This document shows positions 1 to 60,684 of a stretch of DNA of 64,000 nt, in pieces (within the stretch, counting starts at the first letter, position 1; each line of letters begins with the position of its first letter). The position numbers were made by a program, and so were the translations under genes. The notes under the pieces are model-generated. The model searched no databases and was not told the DNA's origin. It saw only the letters and a program-made list of their open reading frames with translations. This DNA comes from Amphiscolops sp. MND2022 (taxonomy: Eukaryota), in contig OZ076409.1 of the NCBI GenBank assembly GCA_964187785.1, positions 10,976,001 through 11,040,000 of the forward strand, given 5' to 3'.

Positions 1-3000
1 GATCAACAACAATGGACGAGCTGCCGTCAACACTATTTCCAGAGACGATTCTGTCGAGTTTGAGGTGAACTTCCTTCCTAGTGCAGATTTCTTAAAGTTT
101 TTACATGCTGCATGGAGACATGCAGGCTAATCTTTTACTCCAGTCAGAAAACTTTCGAAGCTCTTGATAAGAATCGTGCAATTTTGTAAACCCTTTGGCA
201 AGATACTTTTCAAGAGCGCCAAGAATATGTAAGATCTTGCAAGATCTTGCCAAGAAGTCATATGAAAAACTGACAAAAACTAACAAAAACTGACGCCAAC
301 TGCGGTTTGATCAGCAAACCATTTATGTCACAGCTATCGGCGCTACCAACCAAGCTATCACGATCTGAAATTCAATACTTTGTGTTGTCATATAGCTAAA
401 ATATCAAAGATTGATAGTGCAGCTGGTAGTGCGAACAATAGCCAAGTACTTGTGAACAAAATTGTTGTTTGTTTTACAACTTATTCATTTTCTTGACACT
501 CTTGATACGACTCTTACCAAGATTCCTATCAAGAATATCTAGAGGTTTGTGTGAAGCAAGAATAAACAAGATCTGATGAAGGCTTTCAAGAGTAAATGGG
601 AATATGTACGAATATGCGAGATCGTGGCAAAAATTTCAAGATATTTTGCACTGGGATGGTATGCGTCGAAAACAAAACCGGTCCTAAAGTAACTGTCGAA
701 TAATAATTGAGTGCAAACTCGTCAAATAATTACAGATTACCCACAGGGATTAGTCAGTGCTAACTATGAAATAATTTTCCTTAATTGATGCGTGAAATTT
801 TCAGGTTTGCGCAAAATTTCGCTTTTTTAGTTATGTAATTGCTTGCAATGTTTCATTTCTATAGTTTACAGTGTAATAATTCACTTTTAAAAAGTTTTGA
901 TAATAGTACGATCACAAAGTTAACACTACATCCGCCAGAGAACTTTCGACGAGTTGCTTTTCGAAGAGTTGTTTCCGACGAGTTGTTTTCGACGAGCTGT
1001 TTTCGACGAGCTGTTTTCCACGAGTTTTCCTAGATTCATCCTTTACAAAACTCAGGGAAAATTCAGGGAGAAACACTTCGTAGGTTACAAGACGCCCGCT
1101 AAGCACCGGGATATTTTCCGCTAACAGAATAGTCAAGTAATTAAAATAGTCAAGTAATTCTAGTGTTACTGGTCAAGTAAGGTGAAACTGGGAGGAGATT
1201 TGGCTGAATTTGGAAAAAAAACGCAAAACAGATAATGATTTTCCTCCCCATTTATGTGGGCGGAAAATAACAATGCATCATCCACAGTCCAAGCAGTTTC
1301 AACGTTTCAACCAGGGTTTCATTGTCAGAATTCAAAAAAGTCCAAAGGAGACTCCATTTGAACCCATCGAGAGGTATCGATGGACCCATTGCAGTGTTTT
1401 CCGATGGCTATCTATTGGATTTCAATTATCGCCAAGCGCGTTATGACCCCCTGGGAAGCATTTTGGGTCTACTTTTTCTGACCTGAATCTGCTTATCTAG
1501 CGTGAATGAGCTTTTTCGGGCCTAAACGTTACTCATCTTAATGTTTTGTCTCCAATATTGTCCTTTTTTTGTTTACCTCTCTGCAAAATAGTCTGCAAAG
1601 TAGCTTCAAAATCGTGGAATACCCAAGAATAAAGTTCATCGTCAGGGTATGTAGATTGCCATGCTAGGAAGTTACAGAGTATATTCGAACTGATCAGCAA
1701 CGGCTAATTCATGTGTTCAGGTCCTGTCGCAGGCTGCCGCCTGTGACGGAACTAGAATTTCAACAACAGCTGTTGGCCAAGATGTGGCTCCTGGGACCCT
1801 ACCTATTTATTAAAAGTAAACTGAAACTTTTCTTTAAACTTTTTCATTGTTTATGTATCTTGTTGCCTTGTTATTTTAAAAACTACCCGAAAGGGCCGTA
1901 CTGGGACATATTCCCTATTACCGAACCAAAAATGTGCTTGTTATTTATTTACAGACAACCTTAGTTTTGAATGTTAATTGTATATTAGTCCGTTAACATA
2001 GATTGTGTTGTGCTGTTGTTTTGTAAATGCAATGAAGTATTAATCGGAGATAATAGCAATCAACTTAGAGAAAGTACGGAAACGTGTTCAAATGGTCCTC
2101 TGTACTTTCTTGCTAGCGTCACTTGCGCTCACTCTATTAGCCAATCAGATGCCTTCATTTTGTACGCTTTATTCTCTTTTGCCGATTATGGCCTTTGTAC
2201 AATCTGGACGAGTGTGCTACTAATGCCGTTCAGGCAGACGGTCTAATCCGGCTATTTAGTCTACAATGAACATAGCACTTGTATTTAATGCTAATTCCAT
2301 GTAGTAATATTTTTTTAGTAGTAGGCTTTGTTGATCATGAAGTACCAATTTGAAGTGCTATTTAATGCTTTGTTGTGTTATTAACAAATAATTGCCCGAT
2401 TTTGCTCTAGTACAACCCTGTTGCATGAAATTTGATGTTATTGCCTTAACAGGCCTTTTGCCATTGTACCCATGAAAGGTATTTAGACTAAACATATTTG
2501 TTGTGCTGCCATGTGCTAAAGTATGTGCACTTACATCAACAAATACCTGTTCAATGAAAATATTTTGCCAAATATGTAAACGATGCTAACGGTTGAATGA
2601 TTGTTCCTTTGATGTATAATATTTGGAATGGATAGCGTTCATCCCGTGACCATCAGGAATGCAGTCATATGATATTGTCTTAGTCAAAGAATGTAAAGAA
2701 TGAGAGTGTCACTCTTTCGGGGGTTTAAATACCCGTGCCTTTGAGAGAGGAGACACTTCTTAATTTGCTCTCTTCTGAAAAGACTATCATATTAGTACAA
2801 ACGGTTTCACTGTTATTTTCGAGATATAATCTAATTCAATTTTATACTCGAAGTTTTCCTTATGCCTACTACGAGAAAACAAAAGAAGGCTAGAAAGTCC
2901 AGAGGACTAGAGATCCTTTCTGATATTGAAAATCTAGATATAATGTTAGGAGGCGATCGTTACAATGGAACTGAAAGAGAAAGGAGTTTAGACAGTAACT

Positions 3001-6000
3001 CCGTTAGAAGGAGAGAAAGTATCATGAGTAATAACTTAGACAACGAGGACGAAAGCCTGTTTTCAAATTGTAGAAATGATGAACCTAGGACAAGTGCCGA
3101 TCTTGGTCAAAACTCAGCTGAAGCAAACTCACTAGCTTAGATAAACAGGTTGTCAAGCGAATTAAACTCTAGGATATCCCGTGAGATGGATGAAATGATG
3201 AATAATGTTGGTACACAGATCCAGAGGGCCATCAATGAGGCTATTAACAGTCAAGTATTGCCTCAAATACAGAATGTCATAATGGCCGGATCAGGTCGAG
3301 AGACCAGAAGGGGATGGGAAGTCCCAGTTGAGAGATCGGAAGCAAATGCCGAGGAACAGCGGATTCAAAACGCCAAGGCTGACTGTAGAAATGAACAACA
3401 TGATGGATACCGTTCAGGTGGACCATCTACCCGTCATGTTCATGACATGGTGACAGGAGACAACGAATCTCCACTTCAAGTTCCCGAGTTTCTCACGGGA
3501 CGAGTCTCATCCAGAAACCATCTCGACAGGTCCTATGAGGATATTAACCTTGACACGACGATCCCAGCGCAAGAGAGAAATGCTCCGGCTGATCTAACTG
3601 ACCCTATTACTCGACTGGCAGATGTCTTGACAACGATGCAGAATAGGCCGACAGCCCAACAGCTCACTATACGCCCAGTCAATTCAAACACAATGACTTT
3701 TGATGGCAAGAGTGAAAAATTCGAGCTGTTTGAGGACCTGTTCCACACGATGATCAAGATGCAACCGGAAATGACGGAACAGATGAAAATAAATCACTTC
3801 CACTCACTGCTGAGGAAGAATGCTCTCCAAACCTTCCGGAACATCAGCTCGAGCAATAGACAGACTTTAGAGGACGTATTGGTAATATTCAGACGAAAAT
3901 ACGTCAAACCCGAATCACAGGCGACTGCCAAACATAAATGGAACCGTCTAGTCTGTGATCCCAACACGATGAAACTGCCAGATTTCCTTGAAGAATTAAA
4001 TCAAGGGGCAGAAAAAGCATTCGGGGATCACGCGCAGAAAATGATTGACAGTTTGCTCTACGCAAAACTGCCACCAAAACTGAAGCGGTCTGTAAACATG
4101 GCCAGACTCGAAAACGGCTCTTATGACGAAATAGTTGCTCATTTAGAGAGAGAGTTAGAACTAAATGCCCTTGAGGAATCAGACGACCTACCAATGGCCA
4201 CAATGACCTCCTCGACAACAAAATCCAAGACTCCTCTAACTACTGGGCAAATATCTGATATCACTTGCAACTATTGCAAGGAGAAGGGCCATATGGTCAA
4301 AGACTGTGAAAAATTGAAGAAGAAAAAGGAAAAAGATGCCCAACAAGGCAAACAGACTCAGAAAAAGACGTATCCGGAGTGTGGCACATGTGGTAAAAAG
4401 AACCACCCGGAGGAAAGATGTTGGCAAGGTGCTGGTGCTCATCTTAAACCCAAACGCACCAGACCAGAAGACGCTAATGACGGTAAACCCAATTCAAAGG
4501 CGCAGAAACCACAAAACAGGTCAACATCTTCCAACTCACAGGCCTCATCTTCCAATGATGAGTCAAAAAACTAACTTCGCCACGACTCCAATACAACGAA
4601 CTGATATCCGTCCGACAATACATCAGGTCGGATCCTCCAACGAAAAATTTTCATCAATATACACAACAATTGATGGGCTATCCCTCTGTTGTCTGGCAGC
4701 AACAGATGGACAAAGCAAAAACCATCACACATAACAACACACATTTGTTCCAAAAACCAATTCCTGTTTGGGACCCTGATTATACTACTACCTTCACTAC
4801 CCGATTCAGGCCCATTCCCCTGGTTGACAATTACAACCCTACCTACATAGATCCAGACTACGGCAGAGACCCCTATTGGGACACAGAAATCTACAACCAG
4901 GAACAACTACAATTCCAATATGTCTTAGACGATATCGAACACTATAATAGAACGGTCCACGAGAACCCTCCAATCACCCACAATAAAAAGACCAGAGCAC
5001 TAGTTGAAAACTGGCAAATGAATGATGGCACCAACCATCCAGTGTTCCCAAACCCATTGGGGACCGAGACCCATGAAGACGTTGCTCAACCCATACCACA
5101 ATCACTATTAGACGAGAAGCAATTCCAGAATGTCTTAATCACCAGGGACGGTGAACCAAACTGTGTACCATTGTCAACCAACATCAACCTCAAATGCAAA
5201 AAACGCATGTTGTACTTCCCCATGGACTTTGGGGAGTTGACCATAGATGGACTTATCGACACTGGAGCGCTGTCCAGTGCAATTCCTGAGATGGACCTCC
5301 GGAAAATTCGACTCCTATCTCCACAATCTGTTATCCGGGAAGGTCCGCCTCCAAATTTCCAAATCATGGTTGCTAATGGGCAATTGGAAACTCCTAAGAG
5401 TACCATAGAGCTCAAATTTGAAGTTGGTGACATTGAGTTTCATGAGATTTTTATAGTCATGGAACACCTGACAGGTCCGATTATCGGCCTAATGTTCCTT
5501 CAACGAAACCAAACAGTTCTGGACATGAGACAAGGAATACTGAATTTCCCGTTCTTCTCAATGCAGCTCAAAACAGCTGACCATAAATACTCAAATGTAT
5601 TAGAACCAATTCTCAATCCCATTGAGATAACAATTCCGCCAAATGATAGAGTCCTAATTAGGACCAATTCCCTACTGTACCCTGAGAATGCTGTCACTGG
5701 AATTTTGCAACCGAGCGACCTTCTACATGAATAAGGCGACATCACATTTTGCCCAGCTTTGGTCACTCTGAATGATGGCAACATATTGATACCAGTGAAC
5801 AACTTCACAGACCACCCCTATAAACTCAAAAAGGGACTTCATATTGCCAATTTCTCTGTTATGACGCCAGAACAAATGAAGTATCTCAAACCGGTAGACC
5901 CGGCATCAACCTGGCATCTTTTACAAAATGACCAAGAGCAGGCAGCCCACTATGTCAGCAGTCTCATCAAAACTAATAGAAATCCACAAAACTCCGAAAA

Positions 6001-9000
6001 ATACTGGTTCCCGACTCCAGAAAATCCTGGAAACCCTGAGGAACATACGCCCATACAAAAACGAATCCTCCAAGAATTACAGGCCTTACAGGTCCTGGAG
6101 ACACTTGACCCTACTAAAGATGACGAATCACGTGCAAAATTCCTAGAAAACTTTGACTGGAAGGATTCCACCCTTACTCCTGAAGAGAAGGAGAAAATTG
6201 AGGAATTGTTAGTGGAATTCCATGACAACTTTGCACGACACCGATTCGATATAGGCATGAACGAGGAATTCAAGGTGAAACTGACGCCTAAGGACGATTC
6301 CCCAGCCTATAGTCAAAGCCTCCCAGCTCCTATCAATTTGAAGGAGGACATCCTAGTCGAATTAGCCATGTTACACAAAGATGGCATAATAACTACACTG
6401 CCATTTTCGAAATACGCAAGTCCAATATTCGCACAAAAGAAACCGAATGGGAAACTCCGACTCTTGGTTGACTTGAGAAAAATCAACAACCTCATCTCGG
6501 ATGATTACATCAACAATAATCACCCCGTCAGTACACTAGTTGATGCTGCCCAACACTTGGCAGGCAAAAAACTGTTCTGTAAATTAGACTGCTCGCAGGC
6601 ATACCACTGCCTACCAATGTCTGACCAACGTTCAATCGAAATGTTGGCTTTCAATTTTGCCAGTCGCACATTCGCTTACAGACGATTGGCACAAGGCCTT
6701 AGTCGGTCACTATCCGCATTCTCGAGTTTTATGAGAGAATACCTTGACAAAGTAATTAAAGCGGATCAGTGTGCCCAGTATGTGGACGATATCGGCATCG
6801 CAGCCAATGATGTTGACCACCTCATGACGAACCTGAGAGCTACATTCAAATGCATTCAGGAAGCAGGCCTTAAGTTAACAATGCACAAATGTCATTTCGG
6901 TGCAAAACAAAATTGATTTCCTCGGACGGACTATTACCCCACAAGGCGTCAAACCCCAGAAACAGAACGTGCAAAACTTTCTGGAAAAGACCAAATTCCC
7001 GAAGTCGAAAAAGGCTTTACAACGATATTTGGGATTCCTAAACTACTACAGGAATTATGTCCCAAGACTCTCCGAACGCCTTGCTCCATTCTACAAGATG
7101 CTCAAACGAAAAGGTCCTAGTATCGAAAGAATTAGTCCAACAATTCGAAGAAATCAATAGAGCACTAGACAAATGTTGCGACCTGGCCCTACAACAACCC
7201 ATCCCGAACAAACAAATAGCACTAATGACGGACGCAAGTTTCGGTGCAGCTGGATACGCAGTATTAATAGAAGACGATCCGAACCAGAAATTTACTTCTC
7301 TTCGAAAATCCTATGCACCGGTGGCATATGGTTCAAAAACCTTCACCCCAGCTCAAATCAAGATGTCATTATATGCCAAGGAGATTTTGGCAATTTACTT
7401 TGCATTCAAAGAATTTGGGCATATATTCTGGGGTGCGCCCAAACCGGTCATAATCCTTACTGACAATAAGGCTGTAACAAGATTTTTCCAGACGCAAATT
7501 ATACCCCCAACACTCTGGAATGCGTGTGATTATGTGATACAGTTTAATTTTGTCATAGCGCATATCCCGGGGGCACAAAATACAGCCGCAGATTATCTGT
7601 CCCGATTGGAGGCAGACCCGAAGGACAAATTGGTCATGAAAATTCGGGAAGATGTGCAAACCTTACCAATAGAAATCAATGTCCAATCCTCAGGAGTATC
7701 CCAAGAGGAACAAATATTCTACACAAACGATGACGATGAGACAGAGGAACAGTACTGGGCAAGAAAAGAAGCAATCAGGACAAATCCAGTGATCGAATTG
7801 CCCACTGTCACAATACAAACTCTGTCTACAAATCTGGTAAAACAACAACCAGATATCCAAGTCCGTCTAAGGAAAACGAACCAGATCATTATCGAGCAGT
7901 CCAAAGATGCAGTATTGCAGCAGCTGAAGGCAAAGCTCCTTCATGAAGATTACTCAGAGAACATACTGCACCAGGACGTCCGATACAGACATTATGCAAA
8001 CAATATGGAACGACTTGCCCTAAAAGACGAAATCCTGACAAGGCAATATTTTGATGAGACAGGGAATGTGAAATACCATCAGATTTTACTCCCGCAACAC
8101 TTATTTATTCCGGGAATTGCTTCAATCCCTTCACGGGACAGCGCATAAACACCCCGGAATTTCAAAAATGCTGCAGGAAATCAGACAGAGATATTACTAC
8201 CCTAGCATGGCTAAACACGTCAAAAAGTGGGTAGAAGGGTGTGAACAATGTGCCACAGACAAGAGAGTCCCTAATGCAACGATCACACCTGAACTGCTCA
8301 ATTTGCCCGGATGGGACCTTGGACCTGAAGACGCCATGCAGATTGACTCACTGCCGAATCTTCCCCCAAGTGGAGGATACGAAAACGTCCTAACGGCAAT
8401 CGATGTATTTTCTAGATATTTGTTTGCTTACCCTCTTACGGACGCATCAGCGATCAATGTAGCAAAAGCGCTCATTGATATCATGACAAAACATGCGTAC
8501 TTGCCAACAACGCTTATCACTGATAAAGGTACCGCATTTACTTCCACAATTATCGCGGAGGTTACGCAAATTTTGGGAATTACACTCAAATGTGCGACGA
8601 CGAAACACCCGCAAACAATTGGGAAATTGGAGCGGACCCATGCCTCATTAAAGACAAATCTCAAAGTGGCATGTGGGGAATACCGCCGACAATGGCATAA
8701 ATACTTGCCATTAGCAGTACTGAATCATAATACAAGTTACCATGCCAGCATCAGCTGTGAACCAACGAGAGTATTCCATGGCCGAATTCCCTACAATATC
8801 CTAGATCATAAGCTTGGAAATAATCCAAACGAAAAGATCAGCCCTACAACCGAATTTGCTGAAGAAATCCAGAACAGGACGAAAACCCTAATAGACAAAA
8901 CGAAGCAAAATATTATGCAGTCATATATCAAATACAAGGAATATTATGACCGCAAAGCGAAAGCTGCTCCATTGAAGGAGAATGAATTCTGTTTTGTCTT

Positions 9001-12000
9001 ACAGCCGAAAGCGGACCATCAAGGATCGAAAATCCCATTCCGCGATTATCGTTGGGTTGGTCCATTCATAGTGCAAAAAGTCTTACCAAATGAGAATTAC
9101 ATTGTACGACGGCTTAATACAAACAAAACTCAAACATTGCATCGAATTCGCCTTAAAAAATTTGTCCCCAATCAACCGCTTGAGGACAATTTCCGAGAGC
9201 AACGCTTGCAGCCAGACGAAGAAATTGTTATTCCGCAGGACTTATACATCATAACGTGGGAAACCGACTTTGGCGAGCAGCTAACTACGCGAGACAACGA
9301 AGCTATTCCGACTAGCTTACCGAATGGCGAACAGCCGAGTACGGCACAAATTAACAATGACGCAAACGAGAGCGACGCGGATTATATAATCACGCGAGAA
9401 ACGAATAAAGACAATACGGCACACAGCCGGAATGACCGCTTAAGTGACAACGTCACAACGAGAAATGAAAATAATGATGCAAATAGAAATAAAGAATCTG
9501 ATTGGCCGAATCCGGCCGCTAGCCCAAACACTCAAGAAAAATCTTTACCGAGTACAGCAAATGCACCGGAAAATCATGAAATTTTGTCAGAAAGAAATTC
9601 GCTGAATGAAACGATGCACAATATTCTCCAAATAGGGGGGATGATATTATCGTGCCCGAAATATCTGAAAACGATGCTAGAAATGAAAGCCTGAGCCCTA
9701 GAGGAGGAAAATATAACCTCAGGCCTAACCCCAACCCGAACTACTCAGAAGACTATAGATACTAGAGAAAATTAAATTCGATTCAGGAAACTAGCCCTGA
9801 ATTGTTTTGCCTTTTTTCTCTTTTTATCTTTTATCTTTTAGTCCCAAGGCGAATCTTTTGAATAAATAATTGGGACAGCCAACAAAACCCCTTCAGAAGA
9901 ATAAATACGGGGCAAAAAAAAACAGAAATGAAAATTCAACAAAAGAAATAAACAAAGTTTACAGTTTGAGAGTACATATATACATATGTACATTTAGTTT
10001 TTAGAACTGCTAGCTGAAGATTCGTCGGCAACAGACGAAGCCCTAGAACGCGAAATGGCCCTCTCTATTCGTCTTCGCTTGCTATCACTGGGAAGTTTTA
10101 CTGCAGAGGCATCAGGGATAGATGAGGTATCTGCTATAGTGGGGCTACGAAATTGAAACTCTGACCCAGAAAGGATAGAACGGTAAGAAGTGACAAGGGT
10201 CTTGTAAATAGCAGTCCGGCCGAAACCGTCTACAAAAGGCCAAGGGTCATAATCGGCGGCGAAAGCGGATTGCCCGAAAGAAGAAGACAGCTGCTGGAAC
10301 TTCTCAAGTTGGGGCTCAGTGCAGCAGGCTAGCAGGGAATCAGGATCTGAAGTCAAATAACGTTGGCAGGGTAAGATCACGTCTACCAAACGGGACTGAA
10401 GCCCTGTTGTATCGATTCTCCCAAAGGAAACTGGGGGATATTCAGGATTGATAGTAGTTATGCAAAGACAGCTAAACTTAAACAAATAGCAAAGATGATC
10501 ATGGGACTGAAGGAATTCCAAATTCATGAAGAAATCGATGAGATCAGGAGGATCCTTGGCTGAACTAAATTCAGCGGAGTGATTGTTCCGGAGGTGGTCC
10601 AATAGGGCAACATACTCGTCTCGGCAAGCTGACTCGTTGAATTCCGAGACCCAGAAACGCAGCTGGAATGTGGAGTACAGGCAATCAAAATGGCGCAAAG
10701 CAACATCCACTGGTCGTTTGAATAGGATGTATGGGTCGAACGCTGCCAACCCTTTGATAAGTTCGAAACTAAGTTCAGTATGTTGGAGAACCTCCGACAA
10801 CAGGAACTTGATGTAATTCCTGGCGCTTGCTGCGAAATCCAATTTGGCCTGGTCGGCAGTCTTACTAATCGCTGCTTTACTGGACTTCATGTTGAAGTGG
10901 AGTCCAGCTGCTTTCAAGTTGCTTGCTGTAGTAACTTTGCCAGCGATCTTGAGATGCACCAGAAGGTTCTCGTCTCCCATGAATGTACCCTGGTTGAGCT
11001 GGAAATTCATCAATAAGAACCAGGCGTTCTCTAGTGGCACTGTATCCGGCTGGAAGATGCGGAAGCAAAGGCGGTTGATGTATTTGCACACTCCGCCACA
11101 GAGGAAGAAGGAGGCATCACGTCTCTGACTCAAATTGGTGACGAAGCTGGTGACATCTGAAATTCACAAATCAATGGTCCTTAAAAGGACAACAGACCAA
11201 AGGGATCTTAGTAGATTGAGAATACTCACAATCGCTGACCAAACGTTGAAAAAGCTCCAATTTGGCAGCAAAGAAGTTGTCCATGATGAGGGACCATTCG
11301 AAGCTCTGGACCTAGGAAAGAAGCAGTGTGAACACCTTGAGACTTACCCATCAACGATAATGCAAGGAAAGCAATTACTACGATTCCTTATGTAAAGAAA
11401 ATGCCACTTGAAGTTCATAACCTTATTGTGCACTCCTTGATTCTCTTGGCGAGATGAATGGGCTGTAAGATAGCGGAGGATTGTTTTCCACTTCTTCGAC
11501 AAGGTTCGGCAGAGTTCAGGAATTTTCTCCACTTCTAGTCTGCAGGTCGTGATTGCCTAAACAAAGTAATCCTCAGGATTGGAATTTCAACTGAAGTTGC
11601 TTACCACCCCCTACCAGTGTAATGTAAAAAACTAGACTCACTCGGACAAGTTCAGGTGACTCTGAAACCCAGTCTTCAGATAGGCATCCTCCGAGTGAGA
11701 CTAAGAGACTTTGGAGAACGGAAAACATGTCTATGTGCCCAAACACACTGTAGTTCCCCTTGTGCATCAAGGTACGCAAGTTGAGCAGTTCGAAGCGGAA
11801 GCAACTTTGAACCCCTCGCGGATAGGCTGGGTGATGGTCCACCGTCCTGATCAGGTCGACAGCGCAACCTGAGATCGCAACTATGTCAGGAGCAGTCGAT
11901 ACGACGGATAACAGTCGAGATAGGGAGCCCAGTTCCTCGGTGAGTCCAGCGCCGGTGAGGCCACTTCTGCAGATGAATAGGCGGCAGAGTTTCGCTCCTT

Positions 12001-15000
12001 TCCAGAACCGCAGGGACATAAAGCGATTAGCCCCTCTCTTCTCAAACTCAACTCCGAAATGCTGGGAGGCGCAGACCTGTTCAGCTATGTCCTCCATCAG
12101 GCAATTGAAGACGTGTTGGAAGATGGCCTGAAACGGAACAAAATTGGATGAATAACATGACGTCACTTTCCTGACCCTTCCCTACCACCTAGTTCAACTT
12201 TTTGGAAAACAACTGAGAGATCTTACCATGATGTGGTCCTCATTCCAATTGAAGTCCTGGAAAGCTGACTGAAACTCAGTGTAACTTCCAACTCTCGCCC
12301 ACAGTTTTCGAAGCAGTGCCAAATCTCCAGAACTTTGGATGAAGTCTCCCAAAAGACATATCTGTGTTCGTAACCGGGACTGTGGAGTGATGGGAGCGGA
12401 AGTGTGGCCTTGCAGATAATCCTCGTAGAATGGATTTCTTTCTCCAACGTCAACGAGCTCCGTGTGTATGAACCTGGGTAACTCATCAGCGAGTTCCTTC
12501 TTACTAAGAATTTTGCCATTCTTCCCCCTGACGCGATGCTGAACTTTCCCAGTCACAAGATCCACTGTTTTGAGGTGTTCATACCTCCACCTCTGGTCTC
12601 GGCGTAAATGTTTTTCGGTCCTGTGATGGCGCAGGATTTCAACGGTGCCCTTGGTTTTTATACTAAAATTCTTTTTACACATGTGGCACCATACCATGTG
12701 TGGATTGTGGAGGGGATCAGAGGGCCCAGAGATAAAAGATCTCGTCCACCCGATTTTGGAAAGAAACTCCTCCCTCATGGGTACGCCTCGTCTGGAAACC
12801 TTTTTCACTTTGGCTGATTTAGCAGTTGTGGTACTTTTTCGGGACCTCTGGGTAGGCGTCCTATTCTGGATCTCAGAGAGGGTAATGTCGAGGCTACCCT
12901 TTTCACCTGTCTCAGCTCCCTCCTCAGAAGAATCTTTTGGCTGCGCTGGCTGGGGCGTTTGAGGAGAACCCCTGGGATCTGAGAGTCTGGTTGATGAGAG
13001 CCATTTCAGTAGAACTGTCACTCTCGTTGGGATCAAGGAAATCACTGACGTTCTGGAGCAGACTCATGTCAGTTTGTGACTCATATCCTGACCCGAATTC
13101 AGTCAAAGTTCCTTCAGAACCGGATCTAGCAGGTAAATTGGGACCAGGAGTGGACGAGCGGGCCCGGATCTGAAACTTTTCTGTCCTCGAGGGGGCTGTT
13201 GCGGGTGTTCCTCTGACAGCTCCAATTACCATCCTTTCCATGGTCGAACAAGTCATGTTGATGGCCTCATCGGTTAAAACCCGGAGCAAGTGGTAAACTT
13301 GTGGCTCAGTAAATGCGACGACTCTTTGTCCGACCGGGAAGGTGTAAGGGTCCTCGGTCTCGAAGTACTGCTTCAAGGTGGCTCGACTTCGCCCTGACAA
13401 ATCTCGCAAGGTGTCGTTTTGACCTGATTGGCCAGATCTAGATGTGCCAGGTTGGCCCGGATCGTGAACTTCTGAGCCTGATTCACCTCCAGTTTCTGAT
13501 TGCTGTGTAGAGTCAAAAGGGTTCATAGCATATAATGGGGGGCACTCAGCTTGACTGATGTTTTCTGATGTTTGATTGGCATCACTGAACTCACCAATAT
13601 CTTCAACTTGGTCTTTCCTCCCAGGAAGTGGAGGAGGTTCTATGATAGAAGAGGAGGCATCCCCTTCAGACTGTAAGAATGGGACTTCAGACATCCCTTG
13701 TGTCTGATCTTGGAGGACTTGCAACTCGAGAAACCCTGTGCTCATCATCGGCGCCACTGAAAGCGAGGATTCAAGTTGGGTGAGACTATCTACTGAAGTC
13801 CCTGGCTGATTTGGTGGATTAGGTGTGCCAGATCGTACAAATTCAGCACCCTGGACTGCAATTTGGACTAATTGGCCTTGGGCCGTAATAGGACCCTCTT
13901 CAACGTTACTAGCAGAATCGGCTTCAGTAAGTCCTTGTATGGTCTCCATCCTCTGGGACTCCTGATTTGCATAGGCGGTGACATCGGCATTGCTCTCATT
14001 GTGGAAGGAAGAGTCTACAGTCATATGCTCGGTTTGTCCACGGGCAGCCCTGATTGGAGGGAAAGGAGGCGGTGAAGGATTAACTCCAGGAACATATCCA
14101 GACGTGAAAATGGGGACTGGGCGTTGAATAGCCCCGGCAGAATTGTCAGTTGTGTTGGTGGTTTGAACTTGAGGTTCATCAGGATTCTGGTTATCTAAAC
14201 AGAAAGAGATGAAATTTGGCGGTAAGCTTCCTTGAAAGAAATCCATTACGCCGCATTAGAAAACTTCCGGAAGTGTTTTGAAAATTTGAATGAAACGGTT
14301 TATCACGTGTTCATTAGTAGATACAGGAAGCGTTTTGTGAACAAATTCGACCTTGATCAAGTTGAACTAGTTCAAACTAGGAGAAAATCAAACCAACCTG
14401 TATTAGAAGACATTCTGTTGAAACGGCCCACTTGGATACAGTTCCGATTCGGACGTTGTTGAAAAGGGGGAATTAGAAGTGCTCGGGGATGAAGCAAGGG
14501 GAAAGAATCTGCGATGAAGCAGGACGTGGTCCGATGCAGGCACCGAGACGAAATTGACGATGAAGATGAAGATGAAGATTAAATTGCAAATGAAAGGATA
14601 AACGGAACAATAATTGGAATTAAATCAGGAATTGAATGAGTAAAAGAATTACTAAAAGTTGGAGTTCGTGGCTGAAGATTATTACCAGACTAATATTATG
14701 GGATTATCTACATATTTATTCTGTACATGGAGTCTGCCAGCGAAGTGTACAAAAACTTTGTTATTTACAGCTTACTTAGTTAGTGGCCTATTCCGGCCGT
14801 TTGACCAGTTGCACTTTATCGTTTCGTTCAGTTATCTTAGTTATTCTTAGTTAGAAAATCCGCCATTTTGAATTATTTTGATTTGTTATTTTCGCCATTT
14901 TTTTATTTAATTTTTCAATTATCAGAGCTTAACTCTGATTGGCTGAAGCCATGTTGGAAGTATTTAGCGACGCGTGCTGTTAATTGTTCTGAAGCAAGCC

Positions 15001-18000
15001 GTTAATTACCTACTAGAGGTGAAGATATTTGATATCAACAACTTAAGTGCTGCTTACACCTACTTTGATGATGGCTTTGATGAAGGACAAACATCAAACC
15101 AATCGGAGCCGCCAACCCCGTTTAGGAATTCCATTCAGAAAAGTTTACGATGAATCGGGGCAATCAACCTAAGATTCTCCCGCTAAATTGGAAACTTCGG
15201 GAAAAGTCCTAACTCGGAATTTGGGGAGGTGATAAGCTCATTCTGATTTCAAACCCGCTCACGACAAGTTGACTAGAAAACCTTCAAAATTGCAAAAAAA
15301 CTGATAATGGAGAAATTCAACAAAGCGAGAAAGCTCTTTGGTTCTCTTGACTTTAGCTCGGACTCATCAAATAACTCTGTAATCTATATCAGTAGCGACG
15401 AAGAAACATCCGAAGGATGGGACTCAGATTGGTCAACGGACACAGAGGAGCTGGTGAGGAGAGTTGAAACTCAAGTCCAAGCCCGGCCAATACCCATAGC
15501 AGGAAGAAAACTAACTATGGCAAGTGATGAGCCTGGCCCCAGTACTGTGCCGCCCAACATGCAGACCACGCCAAAGCTAGACAAGAAATACTTTGATGAG
15601 AAACTTTGCTATGCTCCAACTAGAGGCAACACAAAAAGGAGGATAGAACTGTGCAAGACGATTCTGCCAGTTCTAGAGTCTCCACTATCTCCCCCTGCCC
15701 ATGAGAGGGGGCCGTCAATGCACACGCCGCTATTACAGCCTGAAAACAGTGGATTTCACGCCTCTTTCCATATTCAGAATGCGCTTCCTTACACGGACAT
15801 CAGTACCCAGAGGTGTACGAGTTGCATGGTCTGTGGAAAGTCAGTAGACGAAATAAAGGCAATAAAAGTGACTCGCTATATGGAAGCTTCAACGCCTAGA
15901 AGCGAACCGGCGTACATAACAGCTCTCAGAAAGGAGGCTTACATCAACGGCCTCAATGCTGGCAGTCTTCTTTTCATCGCACCCGCTGTGTCGCAGGCTG
16001 CCGCCAGTGACGGAACTAGAATTTCAACAACAGCTGTTGGCCAAGATGTGGCTCCTGGGACCCTACCCATTTATTAAAAGTAAACTGAAACTTTTCTTTA
16101 AACTTTTTCATTGTTTATGTATCTTGTTGCCTTGTTATTTTAAAAACTACCCGAAAGGGCCGTACTGGGACATATTCCCTATTACCGAACCAAAAATGTG
16201 CTTGTTATTTATTTACAGACAACCTTAGTTTTGAATGTTAATTGTATATTAGTCCGTTAACATAGATTGTGTTGTGCTGTTGTTTTGTAAATGCAATAAA
16301 GTATTAATCGGAGATAATAGCAATCAACTTAGAGAAAGTACGGAAACGTGTTCAAATGGTCCTCTGTACTTTCTTGCTAGCGTCACTTGCGCTCACTCTA
16401 TTAGCCAATCAGATGCCTTCATTTTGTACGCTTTATTCTCTTTTACCGATTATGGCCTTTGTACAATCTGGACGAGTGTGCTACTAATGCCGTTCAGGCA
16501 GACGGTCTGATCCGGCTATTTAGTCTACAATGAACATAGCACTTGTATTTAATGGTAATTCCATGTAGTAATATTTATTTAGTAGTAGGCTTTGTTGATC
16601 ATGAAGTACCAATTTGAAGTGCTATTTAATGCTTTGTTGTGTTATTAACAAATAATTGCCCGATTTTGCTCTAGTACAACCCTGTTGCATGAAATTTGAT
16701 GTTTTTGCCTTAACAGGCCTTTTGCCATTGTACCCATGAAAGGTATTTAGACTAAACATATTTGTTGTGCTGCCATGTGCTAAAGTATGTGCACTTACAT
16801 CAACAAATACCTGTTCAATGAAAATATTTTGCCAAATATGTAAACGATGCTAACGGTTGAATGATTGTTCCTTTGATGTATAATATTTGGAATGGATAGC
16901 GTTCATCCCGTGCCCATCAGGAATGCAGTCATATGATATTGTCTTAGTCAAAGAATGTAAAGAATGAGAGTGTCACTCTTTCGGGGGTATATATACCCGT
17001 GCCTTTGAGAGAGGAGACACTTCTTAATTTGCTCTCTTCTGAAAAGACTATCATATTAGTACAAACGGTTTCACTGTTATTTTCGAGATATAATCTAATT
17101 CAATTTTATACTCGAAGTTTTCCTTATGCCTACTACGAGAAAACAAAAGAAGGCTAGAAAGTCCAGAGGACTAGAGATCCTTTCTGATATTGAAAATCTA
17201 GATATAATGTTAGGAGGCGATCGTTACAATGGAACTGAAAGAGAAAGGAGTTTAGACAGTAACTCCGTTAGAAGGAGAGAAAGTATCATGAGTAATAACT
17301 TAGACAACGAGGACGAAAGCCTGTTTTCAAATTGTAGAAATGATGAACCTAGGACAAGTGCCGATCTTGGTCAAAACTCAGCTGAAGCAAACTCACTAGC
17401 TGAGATAAACAGGTTGTCAAGCGAATTAAACTCTAGGATATCCCGTGAGATGGATGAAATGATGAATAATGTTGGTACACAGATCCAGAGGGCCATCAAT
17501 GAGGCTATTAACAGTCAAGTATTGCCTCAAATACAGAATGTCATAATGGCCGGATCAGGTCGAGAGACCAGAAGGGGATGGGAAGTCCCAGTTGAGAGAT
17601 CGGAAGCAAATGCCGAGGAACAGCGGATCCAAAACGCTAAAGCCGACTGTAGAAATGAACAACATGATGGATACCGTTCAGGTGGACCATCTACCCGTCA
17701 TGTTCATGACAGGTCCTATTCATTATTCCAGCCAATATTGATCTTATTCTATTTTCAAACTAAACCAGTTGGAACGATTTTTCTTCTTCAAATTCTTGAA
17801 ATCCATCGATGGGCTATCGATGGCTATCGCTGGGAATTTTGACCTTTAATGCCCATCGATGCTCTCCTATATTTTAATTTCATTATTGATGGTTCGAACC
17901 ATCAATAATGAAATCGAAACATCGAGAGCATCGATGGGCATTTGAGGTCGATGGGATTTCGATTGAAAAATGATATCAAAACCCTCAATTCGTTTGAGAA

Positions 18001-39235: not shown

Positions 39236-42200
39236 TTAGTTCAACGAGGTTTTAGCCATTCCTACTGATCTGTTGGAGCGAAACTTCCTGGTGTAAGTTC
39301 CCACTTCCGCTTTGTTGACACCATCGGATTGTCCGACTGCGTCAAGGTTATTGTCATTGGATGAAATCGTCAAAGTAGTGTCGGATTTGTTCGTCTCGGC
39401 TTCGGAGTTCGGCAGACCAATCAGAGGTGTTGCCGGTTGAGTCCGAGTTGCAGTGTATGCTGGTTCTTCAAAGAAGCGGTCTCGGGCTTGTTTCATTGAA
39501 TGACGACAACAGCTGAGACTGCGAGGAGTGTGATGACTTCGTTTGATGCTGACCCGAGTGACGTCACCGCTCGGTTTCCTCTCGGAAGACGGCTTCGGTG
39601 ACGTCATTGACGTTGCTCCATCTGCTAGTTTCCTACATCACAAAAACTGTCTGGTAAAAAATTATATATGTAAGTTAGCTAGGCTCTCTGGATTAATAGT
39701 GCTTCGATAATCAGACAAAAGCGCCCCAGACAAAAACGCTCCAGACAAAAGCGCCCCAGACAAAAGCGCCCCAGACAAAAGCGCCCCAGACAAAAGCGCC
39801 CCAGTCATAAGATACATGGGGTTTGCTGACTTTTTTCCGCCATCAACTTTAAGTTCCTCAATGCAATTTAATAAGTATGAGTTTTTCTTTTTAAAACAGT
39901 GTATTGATAAATTGATTCTTTAATAAATTAAAATTTTGTTGACAGAAACTTCAAAATTAATAATTTAAGTCTTTAATAATAAAAGTTTCCAATTAGAATT
40001 TGTTAGGTGTGAAAATGTCAAACCTGTGAATTTTTGTATTTTGTGAGTTTTTGTATTACCCGTATTTGGTTAGAACGCCTTCAATTAGATTTGAATAGAG
40101 GCGATGAAATCAGCTAACAAGCCGGGACCGGCCCAAATCGGCGCCATATCTAAGGCTCAAAAATAGCAAAAGGACTTCAATATGTCAAAGTATTGGTGAG
40201 TTGGGGACCCTTTTATGAAAAAAAATTTTTGGAAAAAAAGTCTCACAATGCCAAAAAAAACTGAAAGGGTGGACCCTTTGGGGGTTTTCAACATCCATTT
40301 TGTCGCAAAACATCAAAAAATTGAAGGGGGACCCTTTGGGGAAAAATTTTTCCTGAAAGAAAGTCTCACAATGCCGAAAAAACTGAAAGGGGGGACCCTT
40401 TGCTCTCGCCCGGTATGGTATGTTACGCGGGAAAACAGGAAAAACCTTTTTGGTTCAGTTCGCTAGGCCAAATGGTGCACTTTGGTGCAATAATATTTTG
40501 TAGAACTTTTGTAAAACTATTTTGGTCAGTTCAGGTGGTCTTAAAAAAACACTGACGAAAAGCCATGACTATAGTCGACTCTTTTCTAAAGAAAAGCGCC
40601 GACTGAAAAATAAGCGAGGCGCTTTGTATTGAGGTGTTTTTACTGGGGCGCTTATGACTGTGTAAAATAGGCGCTTTTGACTGGGTTGCTTTTGTCTGTA
40701 CACGAGCTTTTTCACAGTTCTCAACGAATCAAACTACTCAACTGGCGAGTTCAATATCCGACAAATTCAATCGGAATAAAAAAGCCAAGAATTGACCTTT
40801 TGGCGTTGCTGAAAGATCAAGGTTCTTCAAAACATCTCAATCTTATTGAGAAAAATGGCACTGAGCCCGTTGTCTTTTTTGTCACTTTCAGCCCGATTTT
40901 GGGAAAAAGACTCAAATTAGCCGGAAAAATTCGGCAATCATTCGGCTCATTTAACTGAAGAGCAAACTATCTTTCTATATATAGCCAAGTTGAAGATCCA
41001 CGTTCACAAATGAACACATCATTTCCAAGAACAAAGATTGAAAAAATTCACTCTGAAATTCTCAGTGGACCGAGAATGGAAAGCATGAACAAAAAAGCGC
41101 TCAGATCAACTTGACTTGGAATGTTGCTATTCCGGCATCGTCTACTGAGGTTCAATGAATTCACAACTTTGCGTAATCAATAAACGAAATTGCCGGTCCG
41201 GTCGACCAACTTTATCTTCTACACTCACTATTGTGAACAAAAGAGAATCCAAGATCTTTTTAGTTAATGAAAAACAGGGGAAAGACACTTGATAAAAAAT
41301 TGGCGGAATTGTTCGATTCCTAAAGTAACACAACGAAGAATCGTTTGAAGTAACAAAACTCGAATTTTAGATATATCTGATCTGTGAAATGAAATGTAAC
41401 GACATTGCCACCATACTGTTTTTTGCATTCGATTTTCAATGGATAATAAGATTTTTGATGTATTAAAATGGAAGCGAAGCCCCTTGTTAGCAGATCATGG
41501 CTTTTCATGCATAATTCATCCATGATTCATAAGTACGCCATGCCGAGAATCATTCCATGGTCATGGAAAGATATTAATGGTTCATGTATAAAAGCCCATA
41601 AATTTAACCATGATAATTTCTGAACTAGAAAATTGGTAAACTGAAATTAAATGTTCCACGACGAAAAGTGCAAGACGATATGTTAGTTCGTTTCAAATTT
41701 TGCTTTATATAAATACGTTATGATTCAACAAGTAATTTACCGAACTGAAAGTTTTCTAGATTATATTTTCTGTTATTTTCAGATACTGTTGTTTTTGCAG
41801 TTAACATTCCTCTACACAAAAGTTGTTTCAATCAAAGACTTCTTATTGGTTTTCGCTGAAATGCGTAAATTATTACAGAACTGCCCAAAAGCTTCCACGG
41901 TTAACAAAACATGGTGCTTTTGGTAATGGATCTTCGTGGATGAGACATGAGTTCTTGTCATAGCTATGATCATGAATGATTAGCCAAGACTCCCAAGATT
42001 CGAATGTAATGCAAATCACCATGTAGTATTGATACTAAGCTAAAAAGCCTAAAAAAGAATGAATGAAAGTCAATGCATGCAAATTCTTCTATATACCATT
42101 CGGTTACATTATCGAGTGCCTAATATCACGGCTACCTTATTTTCAATTGATGACGTAACAATGACGTAATGACAAGAGAAGACGTGCATGCAATACCGAC

Positions 42201-45200
42201 CCGTAGCGCTGATATATGATGAAGTCTGTGGCCTCGGGGTTGGTCTCCTGGATGATCTGGAGCACCTTGCTGGTGGTTGTGCCGTCCAGCTGGAACAGCT
42301 CCTGGTGACACAGGATCAGAGTCTGGGTGATGTACACTATTGGGGTGTAGTCCTCTATGTACTCCATCTTCTCCACTGTGATGTCGCTGTGACTCGCCGT
42401 CTTGCTAGAGGGCGGCTTCAGAAGCGTGGGTCCGAACACAGTCGCCAGGTTCGCCGCGTTCATCTTGCTCCCACTCATCTGCAAGAAGAGCGACCACATA
42501 TGTACCATATATCTACGCATTTGCTACCATGGAACTTTTTTCAAGAACATGGTAAACCTTGGAATCCTTGTCAAGATCATGGTAAACCTTGGAACCCTTG
42601 TCAAGATCATGGTAAACCTTGGAACCCTTGTCAAGATCATGGTAAACCTTGGAATCCTTGTCAAGATCATATTAAACCTTGGAATCCTTGTCAAGAAAAT
42701 GGTAAAACTTCGAACCCTTGCCAAGATCATGGTAAACCTTGGAACCCTTGTCAAGATCATGGTAAACCTTGGAATCCTTGTCAAGATCATGGTAAACCTT
42801 GGAACCCTTGTCAAGATCATGGTAAACGTTGGAAGCCTTGCCTAGATCATGGTTAACCATGGTTAGCCTTTGCACGATCTTCCATGGTCATGGTATCCTT
42901 GCCAAGATCATTGCAAGATTATAGCGATATATTGGCAAGTTTCTTTTCTTGCAGGGGCAATAGAGGCTTTTCTGCAGAATTCAAGCAGCAAAAATGAAGT
43001 TCGTAGCATATGTACTGCTGAAGATGTTCAATTTCTCTTGAAAAAAGTGCCTAAAATGCTTCAAAAAGTGGCAAAAACCCCAAAACAAAAATTTTCAGAT
43101 TTCTGCAGTTAGACAATTTTAGTGAAATTTTGAATTTTTCCGTTGGAATAAATGTCCACAGTATAACACTCGACACTGACAGGGCTACCAACGAGCAGGT
43201 GCATAAAAAAGCCCCATTCTCAATAATACATCAAATGATTGAGCAGCACAAAAACGTATGCTCAGTGGAATTTGATTCAAATTATTCACGTGTGCAGCCA
43301 GTGGAGAGTAGCTAAAAGGAGTTTTCAAACACAATTTCGAACACATTAGGGGGTGGCTACCTCTGGGCTAGCATTTGGTCCCTGTTCGGCGGTGGTGGCC
43401 TGGTGGATTTCGGACAGGAAGGACACGATGCAATGGAGGGTGTCTCTATTCGCCCTCGGCAGCAGACACAGCAGGTACTTCAGACACTTCAACTGCAACT
43501 TGTGATCGTCCAGCTCTGAAAAAAACAGAATTTTTTTCTCCCGACCTTTTCATGAAAATTTCAAAGTTCTCAAAAACTGTTCATACGATTTTCATAAAAT
43601 TTTGCAATCATTTTACACCCAAAGGGGCCCCTGCGTGTTCAAAGCAATAAAATCGTATGACTGGAATGTGAGAAACATAGCCAAAATTAGCCCAAAAACA
43701 GCCATTTTTCGACTTTTTTCGATTTTCTCAAAAACTGTCCATACGATTCGAACGAAATTTTCTCCAGTCATTCTACACCATATTAGAGTCCTATATGTGC
43801 AATGGCATCAAAATCGTATGGCTGGGATGTGAGAAACATAGCCCAAATTAGCCCAAAAATGGCCAAAGTCAATCATTTTTCAATTTTTTTTCTTCGATTT
43901 TCTCAAAAACTGTCCAATTTTCTCAAAAACTGTACGATTCGAACAAAAATTTCTAGTCATTCTACACCATATTATGGTCCTTTATGTGCAATTTCATTAA
44001 ATTCGTATAGCTGGGATGTGAGAAACCTATCCAAAATTAACCCAAAAACGGCCAAAAACAGCCGTTTTCGACTTTTTTTGATTTTCGCAAAAACTGTCCT
44101 TACGATTCGAACGAAATTTTGTACAGTCCTTCTACACGATATTATCGTCCTTTGTGTGTAATTTCATCAAATTTGTACTACTGGGAAGTGAGAAACATAG
44201 CCAATATTAACCCAAAAATGGTAAAAAAACAGCCATTTTTCGACTATTTTTGATTTTTGCAAAAACTGTACATACGATTCGAACGAAAATTTCTAGTCAT
44301 TTTCTTCACCATAGTATGGTCTATGTGTGCAATTTCAATAATTTCATATAACTGGGATTGCAGCGAGTCAGAAGGAAAAAGACCTAAGCCGACTCCTTTA
44401 CAGCATATGCGGCTCTGGTTTTATACACCTGAAGTGACCAAAAAAGTTCTACTAAAAATTCTACAAAATTTTAAATTGTACCTGTTGGCCCAAGGAACTG
44501 AACCACAAAGGTTTTCCCTTTTTTTCCGCGTATCATATAATACCGGGCGAGACTAGTGTCCCCCTTTCAGTTTTTTCGGCATTGTGCGACTTTTTTTTCG
44601 GCATTGTACGGAAGGGTGAAAATTTCCTTCAATTGTTTTTGAGTTTTGCGACAGAATGGATGATGAAAAATCCCGAAGGATTCCCCCTTTCAGTTTTTTC
44701 CGCAATCGTGAGACTTTTCAAACATTTTTTCGGGTGCTCTAGAAGAGAATACTTGACACTTTGAACTCCTTTTGCTATTTTTGAGCCTTAGATATGGCGC
44801 CCACTTGGGCCGGTCCCGGCTTGTTTCTCAATCTTTAACTAAAGCATGAGGAAGTATCACAGACCTTGGAAAATAATGGTTGCCATTCTAATATTACTGG
44901 AAAAATAAGGTATTTTTTTACGATTTTCGTCTCCGAAAAAAATATTGCAATATTTGCAATAATAACTTTTCAATTTAAAAAAAAAACATTGTTTCCAAGA
45001 TTGGGTTCAACTTCGAATCGTAATAATTATGGAAAAACAGTCTCTCGCGACAAGATTTTCTCCACAGTTGAAAAGGTCAAGAGATTTTGATTGAATTTTG
45101 GAAACAAATTAGAAAACATGCTGCAGCGAAAGAAATTATCATATTTATTTTGTGTCAATTATTGGGAAATAATTCGTCAACGCCATATTTTGTTTCAATT

Positions 45201-59996: not shown

Positions 59997-60662
59997 ATGG
60001 TATATGTGATAGGTGCAAGCTCTTTGAGGAACGCAGTGAGTGCATTACATTACAAGTCCAAAAAAGAATACGAGAAACGTGTAACAGCTATCTCTGGTCT
60101 CAGTCTCAACCCATTATCGAGTAACCCCCTCAAAAACTTGCAGAATCTCCTACGAAAGGGATCTTTGGCAAAACAACAAAATCTGATAATTTGGCACGAC
60201 ATCATTAATAACTCCCTATCAGTACATTGGAAAACTCGAACGCCGGCCCTCACACCGGAAGAACTTGTCAAATTACTAGTTCACTATCGAGATCGAATCA
60301 GTGCTGTTGTTTATTGTCGCAGATTTGGGACCCCCGATGTTTACAAGGAATTGAAAACAAGTGGTATTCCCATCATAAGTGTAAGAAAAAACTTGGTGTC
60401 AAAACGAAAACAGCGAGACAGTGATTTGCAAATAAAATTATCTGCGGTGCATCAGCAACATCATCTGGAATTGAAATCGCTGAGTATTGTTTTCAAAAAC
60501 AGTCACAATCTGAACGCACTGACGAAGAATAACCACTCGAAAAAGAACCGACCATCTCAGAAGAAGCGGCGAAGGAAACGGAACTTCGGGTTAAAGGTTA
60601 GTTTCATTTGGGCATCTTTTCTTTTGTGGTTGGCCTTCGGAGATTCTTTTCTTGCTGGCTAG
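59997..60662 (+). CDS. LINE ORF0: putative SGNH/GDSL-esterase-like protein with a basic C-terminal stretch
   Basis: MVYVIGASSLRN resembles SGNH block I (GDS); also AISGL, LIIWHDIINN and KKRRRKR. Fold assignment is an inference. Confidence 0.55.
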   Translation: MVYVIGASSLRNAVSALHYKSKKEYEKRVTAISGLSLNPLSSNPLKNLQNLLRKGSLAKQQNLIIWHDIINNSLSVHWKTRTPALTPEELVKLLVHYRDRISAVVYCRRFGTPDVYKELKTSGIPIISVRKNLVSKRKQRDSDLQIKLSAVHQQHHLELKSLSIVFKNSHNLNALTKNNHSKKNRPSQKKRRRKRNFGLKVSFIWASFLLWLAFGDSFLAG

Positions 60663-60684
60663 CTACTTTAGTTGAGTGCCTAAA

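Follow-up and report, generated by a model that had tools for sequence, protein, structure and literature searches.

A Ty3/gypsy LTR retrotransposon family without a polypurine tract before its 3′ LTR, and a terminal hairpin as a candidate mark of its plus-strand priming site

All LTR elements and retroviruses are taken to have a polypurine tract (PPT). Retroviral ORFs that enter the 3′ LTR, namely HIV nef, MMTV sag, and foamy virus bel/bet, keep the PPT inside the ORF, and foamy viruses use an internal promoter. Plus-strand DNA starts at an RNA spared by RNase H just before U3 and thereby sets the left end of the LTR (PMC5371799, PMC3185511; here and below, papers are cited from excerpts of their texts). 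No common consensus exists on how RNase H spares and cuts the PPT precisely (PMC3185511). In Ty1, Tf1, and retroviruses, U- or T-boxes lying upstream contribute to primer definition (PMC10085805). In HIV-1 without 3′ PPT priming, 1-LTR circles are formed and integration is not detectable, and LTR ends extended past CA are poorly processed by integrase in vitro (PMC13332604).

The window, that is, the whole 64-kb stretch of DNA that was analyzed, contains a single LTR element, located at 1725–17711, with Ty3/gypsy domain order. Similar to nef, sag, and bel/bet, an accessory ORF of this element, designated P0001, runs over the priming site into U3, but the PPT retained in the retroviruses is gone here. 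In contrast to retroviruses, the element has no env-like ORF, and no transmembrane segment was found in the two accessory families tested. As in Ty3/gypsy elements (Metaviridae), TG...CA LTRs, a 5-bp duplication, a putative TGG-type primer-binding site (PBS), a zinc-knuckle gag, and the order protease, RT, RNase H, and integrase were observed. Unlike Ty3, the element has an ORF over the priming site, a hairpin that opens the LTR, a gag gene starting inside the LTR, and antisense genes; Ty3 has a 12-nt all-purine tract just before U3 (PMC5371799), whereas the run at this position is 1–2 nt in the close clade of the present family. In the fungal copia element GalEa, a primer signal is likewise absent and a Conserved Hairpin Site, proposed to be essential, lies at the LTR junction; however, the GalEa hairpin replaces the PBS of the minus strand and lies outside the LTR (PMC5445492), whereas here the PPT of a gypsy element is concerned and the hairpin forms the first 24 nt of the LTR. 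Oikopleura Tor elements also carry a third ORF after pol, and an internal promoter was shown for env in some of them, but their third ORF encodes a membrane glycoprotein, which P0001 is not (PMC4402516). The ORF3 of rotifer LTR elements is of the env, esterase, or exonuclease type (PMC5408684), and P0001 is none of these. The term "PPT" is absent from the main text of both the Tor and the rotifer papers. HIV-1 mutants replicate without a working 3′ PPT by way of 1-LTR circles (PMC13332604), whereas the present family shows integration with exact ends and target duplications.

The features that define the element are as follows.
1720–1724, + strand: left target-site duplication, GGTCC, 5 bp
1725–3447, + strand: 5′ LTR, TGTC...GACA, 1,723 bp
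2724–2760, + strand: TATA-like box and initiator-like site, a putative LTR promoter predicted from sequence
2862–4574, + strand: gag with zinc knuckle, starting within the LTR and reading across the LTR end and the PBS
3448–3461, + strand: putative PBS, beginning with TGG immediately after the CA of the LTR
4562–9694, + strand: pol in four frame-shifted pieces, encoding protease, RT (YVDD), RNase H, and integrase (H2C2, D-D35-E)
15989–17711, + strand: 3′ LTR, with the terminal hairpin at 15989–16012 carrying one stem mismatch
17712–17716, + strand: right target-site duplication, GGTCC, 5 bp

The two LTRs start with TGTC, end with GACA, and differ by 16 substitutions. The LTR boundary, which the sequence-only reading had judged secure, is indeed fixed by the TGTC start, the 5-bp duplication GGTCC, and the equal LTR lengths of 1,723 bp; exact ends with target duplications are those of an integrase-type insertion. 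Pfam models for the gag zinc knuckle, protease, RT, RNase H (RT_RNaseH), and integrase (Integrase_H2C2) matched in Ty3/gypsy order, and by its structure and domain order the element is a Ty3/gypsy LTR retrotransposon. The Pfam search gave no match to the BEL/Pao signature Peptidase_A17; a marginal DUF1759 match occurred in gag only, and the gypsy-type protease and RNase H models matched. The matches of the RT in the Atlas and PDB were to RVT_1 only, and its best sequence matches among solved structures were the foamy virus RTs 7kse and 7ksf (E 2e-14). No Pfam match to env was obtained, and the maximum 19-residue hydropathy was 0.9–1.5 in six proteins of the ORF family and one antisense protein, indicating no transmembrane segment in them. 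The four acidic motif positions of RNase H are all present in this copy and are uninformative on its specificity. The copy is decayed: pol is distributed over four frames, gag has a premature stop (3138–3140), and an antisense gene is frame-shifted.

The gag gene starts about 590 nt inside the LTR (2862–3447; the LTR counterpart is 17126–17711) and continues past the LTR end and beyond the PBS, so that both priming sites lie within coding sequence. All 15 gag-head peptides listed, from a cluster of 20 that includes the window's own, break after HVHD, and the next codon can start with A; thus, the right LTR boundary is fixed as well. The sites at 2724–2760 resemble the TATA and initiator consensus and presumably represent the LTR promoter; the sequence of the TATA-like box is not identical in the two LTRs. 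An 11-nt purine run (2743–2753 and 17007–17017), much like the Ty3 PPT quoted in PMC5371799, has the TATA-like box on one side and the putative start site on the other. As a primer this run was rejected, since a copy primed there would have no left U3.

The region around the start of the 3′ LTR contains the following features, together with the hairpin that opens each LTR.
1725–1748, + strand: terminal LTR hairpin, 9–10-bp stem and 4-nt loop, −16.9 kcal/mol
15307–16077, + strand: 256-aa accessory ORF P0001, running into the 3′ LTR
15928–15937, + strand: 10-nt purine run about 50 nt upstream of the LTR, a rival primer
15966–15974, + strand: U-rich box encoding S-L-L-F, ending at −15
15975–15988, + strand: C/G-rich 14-mer at the PPT position, the candidate plus-strand primer

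As read earlier from the letters of the window, the bases before the 3′ LTR are not a purine tract, and an ORF of 256 aa (15307–16077) encodes GSLLFIAPAV up to the LTR and stops at LTR position 89. Of the last 14 nt, 5 are purines, and the purine run that abuts the LTR is 1 nt long; across the last 30 nt, the purine share is 30%. Within 600 nt upstream of the 3′ LTR, the 12-mers richest in purines lie 50 nt and 341–480 nt away. In composition, the stretch is ordinary (12% of the internal 15-mers are equally purine-poor), and the oddity is its position. The ORF crosses the start of the 3′ LTR at codon 228.

Searches with P0001 yielded 150 homologues among 561 candidates; at least 61 of the 120 listed were full-length at 54–98% identity. 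These 61 clusters comprise about 1,500 member sequences by hand sum, a figure that includes fragments and possibly redundant haplotypes. A profile search returned 397 cluster representatives, including full-length relatives at about 26–34% identity; further relatives were at 23–34%. The ORF is therefore conserved across the family, and the check on its conservation did not refute the earlier reading. Among 356 family proteins, 219 carried the junction motif in frame, and the remainder were fragments or frame-shifted. The residue preceding S229 in these 219 was V in 210 and L in 9, as expected if the codon ends in the TG of the LTR. Setting aside two flank-read proteins (P0206 and P0210), in 196 of the other 217 the encoded residues permit a purine run of at most 2 nt before TG under any codon choice, assuming the same LTR boundary in every family. 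The other 21 are all distant: 10 permit up to 8 nt, 4 permit 5–6 nt, and 7 must have a pyrimidine at −1. Distant relatives may thus keep a purine remnant of 4–8 nt, and the loss of the PPT may be graded, not all-or-none.

Boundaries in other insertions were consistent with that in the window. The two proteins set aside from the 219 (P0206 and P0210) consist of unrelated sequence until L|SQAAACDG, which corresponds to flanking DNA read into an LTR, and this break indicates that the boundary is fixed in other insertions. Two DNA loci, L001 and L002, were the only others obtained; they were found with a hairpin pattern in contigs of an independent metagenome assembly. The pattern gave no locus in viral and prokaryote genome contigs, and protein-based locus scans of metagenome and viral contigs gave none. 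L001 is a junction between a host flank and an LTR, with the break at TGTC; its minus strand carries an 807-aa LINE-type endonuclease-RT frame at 614–3037 (motifs read by eye), and the presence of this frame beside a related LTR indicates that the flank is host DNA and not element interior. The homology of P0206, P0210, and L001 ends exactly at TGTC. L002 carries an intact 244-aa homologue, 37% identical over residues 171–247; directly before its TGTC stands a run of 5 purines, itself preceded by a run of C. A standard PPT in other copies is thus incompatible with the encoded residues, the L002 DNA showing a purine run of 5 only, and this second check did not refute the earlier reading either. 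The absence of the PPT is family-wide.

A defect of this single copy, in which the PPT was deleted or the boundary misplaced and the ORF enters the LTR by chance, might be suggested by its decay (frameshifts in pol and the antisense gene, and the stop in gag). However, at least 61 clusters span the full ORF including its LTR-encoded tail, three other sequences lose homology exactly at TGTC, and the GC content drops from 52% to 31% immediately past the ORF stop. ORF conservation, the boundaries of other copies, and the residues that exclude a PPT elsewhere refute this explanation, to which we assign next to no probability.

The terminal hairpin occupies LTR positions 1–24, and the base of its stem coincides with the LTR start. 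Its energy of −16.9 kcal/mol was reached by 2 of the 15,960 27-nt windows of the element, both of which are this hairpin. On 30 nt, its z-score was −4.55, and none of 200 shuffles was as stable. The columns S229–G236, which the hairpin encodes, were 0.92–0.96 conserved in 25 sequences, most at 23–34% identity, with far lower values in adjacent columns, and the structure model of the protein has low confidence precisely at this stretch. The DNA of L002 and the window was identical at 25 of 25 positions from +1 to +25 (neighboring stretches: 14/30, 6/16, 8/14, and 11/30), a figure biased, as for L001, by the search pattern, which fixed 22 of the 25 hairpin bases. Six frame-shifted copies, identified by protein homology (49–87% identical) and decoded by hand, are free of this bias, but they are few and related; four third-codon stem bases were kept in all six, two loop positions changed once each, and one stem base alternated between two pairing bases. 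No two-sided compensatory change was present among the copies compared, in which the stem is almost invariant. No known ribozyme or RNA family was matched in Rfam at E 1.

Several observations bear on whether the hairpin is an RNA signal. Windows like APAVSQAAA scored equally well under random synonymous coding, as alanine runs are self-complementary, and protein constraint alone could give part of the stem. With 40 upstream bases, the 3′-LTR copy of the window took an alternative fold (z +0.39), and the hairpin of L002 persisted in context. The mismatch in the 3′-LTR hairpin, which the 5′ LTR does not have, falls in a codon that encodes Cys in 174 of 179 junction-bearing proteins. The minus-strand complement also folds (z −2.12), with the kept G-U pair becoming an A-C mismatch there. 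Both LTR ends (1725–1749 and 3430–3447) read TGTC...TGACGG inward and are foldable; the U5-end hairpin is weak, as 3,360 of 15,960 windows are equally stable. The terminal palindrome could equally be an integrase site.

The last base of the U-rich box is at −15 in the window and at −14 in L002, leaving 13–14 nt of about 70% G+C before the LTR, and F223, within the encoded S-L-L-F, was invariant in 40 of 40 sequences. Our preferred reading, to which we give slightly less than an even chance, is that the plus strand is primed by a C/G-rich RNA of 13–14 nt, left by RNase H between the U-box and the hairpin base. When RT passes the start of U3, the RNA hairpin would refold out of the RNA/DNA hybrid. 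RNase H would then cut at the LTR boundary, where the stem has its base, and within the U-box, and the GC-rich fragment between the cuts would stay annealed and prime DNA synthesis at TG. The G-U pair kept in the stem would favor the sense strand as the folding strand. With a structure marking the site, the purine tract would be free to decay under the coding needs of the ORF, to at most 4–8 purines in distant families and 1–2 in the close clade. The protein encoded by the ORF probably takes no part in priming. Given the exact ends with which the family integrates, a start at TG or immediately beside it is the economical interpretation. C-rich RNA is not expected to withstand RNase H, which counts against the 14-mer as primer.

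The sequence-only reading had proposed a non-canonical plus-strand primer or altered RNase H specificity. The former would follow from the established logic of reverse transcription; the latter is still among the two main options. Overlooked in that reading were the terminal hairpin and the U-rich box, and they point to position and structure, over sequence, as the signal. In the option based on sequence, which we regard as possible, though less likely than not, a co-evolved RT/RNase H reads the C/G-rich 14-mer by its bases, and the 25-mer at the LTR start is kept for integrase attachment or for the peptide SQAAACDG. The RTs of Ty3 and HIV-1 correctly cut only their own PPT (PMC3185511, PMC5371799), in the close clade P-A-V before the boundary hardly varies, the 14-mer matches L002 at 8 of 14 bases, and the inward reading TGTC...TGACGG of both LTR ends might suit a paired integrase site. 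On the other hand, the 14-mer differs among families (PAV, PGV, RGL, TGL, and WGV) while the hairpin is constant, and the weakness of the U5-end hairpin means that the two LTR ends are not equivalent structures.

Priming from an upstream purine run, such as 15928–15937, with integrase trimming the end to CA beside the palindrome, appears improbable. A run of 9–10 nt about 50 nt upstream was present in the window and in all five readable frame-shifted copies of the close clade (hand decoding), but R/K-E codons alone produce such a run, and distant families differ there (RLA, RGA, RNA, and IDA). Moreover, ends extended past CA lower integrase processing in vitro (PMC13332604), yet the family is highly amplified.

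Very improbable, in our estimate, is an origin without any primer made by RNase H, in which RT, or else a protein (the ORF product, for instance), initiates de novo or by protein priming at a hairpin of the minus-strand DNA. The boundary does coincide with the stem base, the complementary strand folds too (z −2.12), and the ORF is tied to the site in every family seen. Nevertheless, on the minus strand an A-C mismatch takes the place of the G-U pair, the ORF protein has no enzyme-like fold, and the spacing of the U-box fits an ordinary RNA primer. The wider proposal that the superfamily abandoned PPT priming, with the LTR hairpin as the plus-strand origin without an RNase-H-resistant RNA primer and the ORF product possibly involved, likewise has, in our estimate, little chance of being right; if true, initiation at a hairpin origin would be a new way to complete LTR reverse transcription.

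Four further candidates were rejected. Before the 3′ LTR, no match of at least 11/14 to an inverted PBS or a tRNA-end mimic was present. A second copy of the 14-mer as the source of a translocated primer was represented by a single 11/14 match, at 6796. For protection by RNA-RNA pairing with a distant partner, the best value was −21.7, within controls of −16.7 to −28.6. A reversed orientation of the element gave no purine run at the opposite junction.

Hairpin-marked, PPT-less priming, as preferred here, would be an undescribed way of copying an element. In the literature covered, mainly openly accessible papers, no PPT-less gypsy clade and no account of this family or its ORF protein was found. 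An amplified, exactly integrating family without a purine tract allows the role of sequence to be told apart from that of structure and position, and annotation tools that score the PPT would under-call such families.

The accessory protein P0001 contains two conserved features.
15379–15405, + strand: SIM-like motif V-I-Y-I-S-S plus acidic residues (residues 25–33)
15823–15834, + strand: conserved CxxC (C173–C176), followed by two confidently predicted helices

P0001 had been described as having no recognizable family and a CxxCxxC motif. In line with the former, Pfam, profile, and structure searches gave no match; of the latter, C173-x-x-C176 is conserved and the C170 column is variable. In Pfam, no match was obtained for P0001 at E 0.1, and two of five homologues gave sub-threshold matches only. 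The best score in the Atlas was 0.76, not a match, and the PDB profile search returned one match at E 0.96. The full-length structure model was poor (pLDDT 51), with low confidence in the N-terminal two-thirds, which are likely disordered in view of this model. The C-terminal model (pLDDT 73.5) consisted, at residues ~173–217, of the CxxC and then two helices at pLDDT 81–97. Foldseek searches of PDB and BFVD with it were without a match at E 0.001, and the best VIA Z was 4.5, for a small two-helix model from which fold novelty does not follow.

Of 124 full-length homologues, 112 carried the SIM-like pattern within their first 70 residues (shuffles: mean 0.58, maximum 4), as against none of 120 antisense control proteins; the pattern was written after the alignment had been viewed, following a motif definition from PMC12751080, and the sequences are related. 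The L002 homologue carries it as well. A [ST]-P-x-S-P-P motif at residues 124–130 is retained at 25–34% identity and is possibly a phosphorylation site or degron. The SIM of DAXX is required for ERV silencing (bioRxiv 10.64898/2026.03.21.713205), to which P0001 may be linked. P0001 may tentatively be regarded as a regulator in the nucleus, working either against SUMO-dependent silencing or as an activator of the element, although we rate this somewhat below even. As a conserved, unnamed family with a SUMO-interaction-like motif, it is a candidate anti-silencing factor of an LTR element. It likely combines a putative SUMO-binding motif with a small CxxC-helical domain and is made from an internal promoter.

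The region between pol and P0001 contains this putative promoter and the antisense genes.
9994–12181, − strand: further antisense ORFs of 202 aa (matched by longer homologues) and 388 aa, neither assigned to a family
12200–14246, − strand: antisense gene of 686 aa in intact relatives, with one frameshift here and a C-terminal C2H2-like finger
14703–14944, + strand: putative internal promoter, 16-nt element (14703–14718) and reverse CCAAT box (14936–14944), common to L002

The segment 14255–15306, between the antisense gene and the ORF, is likely an internal, perhaps bidirectional, promoter, as suggested by the 16-nt exact element shared with L002 (E 1e-4) and by the reverse CCAAT box at similar spacing in the window and L002 (−369 and −344). 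The 686-aa antisense gene had 144 matches, and its C2H2 finger is one that we take to resemble a BED finger. Neither Pfam nor PDB gave a match for the antisense proteins. Near 12228, a site like a GT splice donor hints that the antisense transcript is spliced. Several matches of the antisense gene lie on contigs equal in length to those of P0001 homologues, which suggests that the two genes are linked in relatives.

LINEs and satellites in the window point to a eukaryotic host. Outside the element, a 222-aa ORF without a Pfam match (42188–42922) lies over a 30-nt tandem array. Long, perfect or near-perfect, spacerless palindromes occur at 46–56 kb (55862–56269, 46502–46838, and 51367–51500), with arms of 204, 97, 77, and 67 nt; they are either biological or an assembly artefact. 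A LINE-like element at 59997–63958 comprises endonuclease and RT pieces, with two unassigned ORFs upstream.
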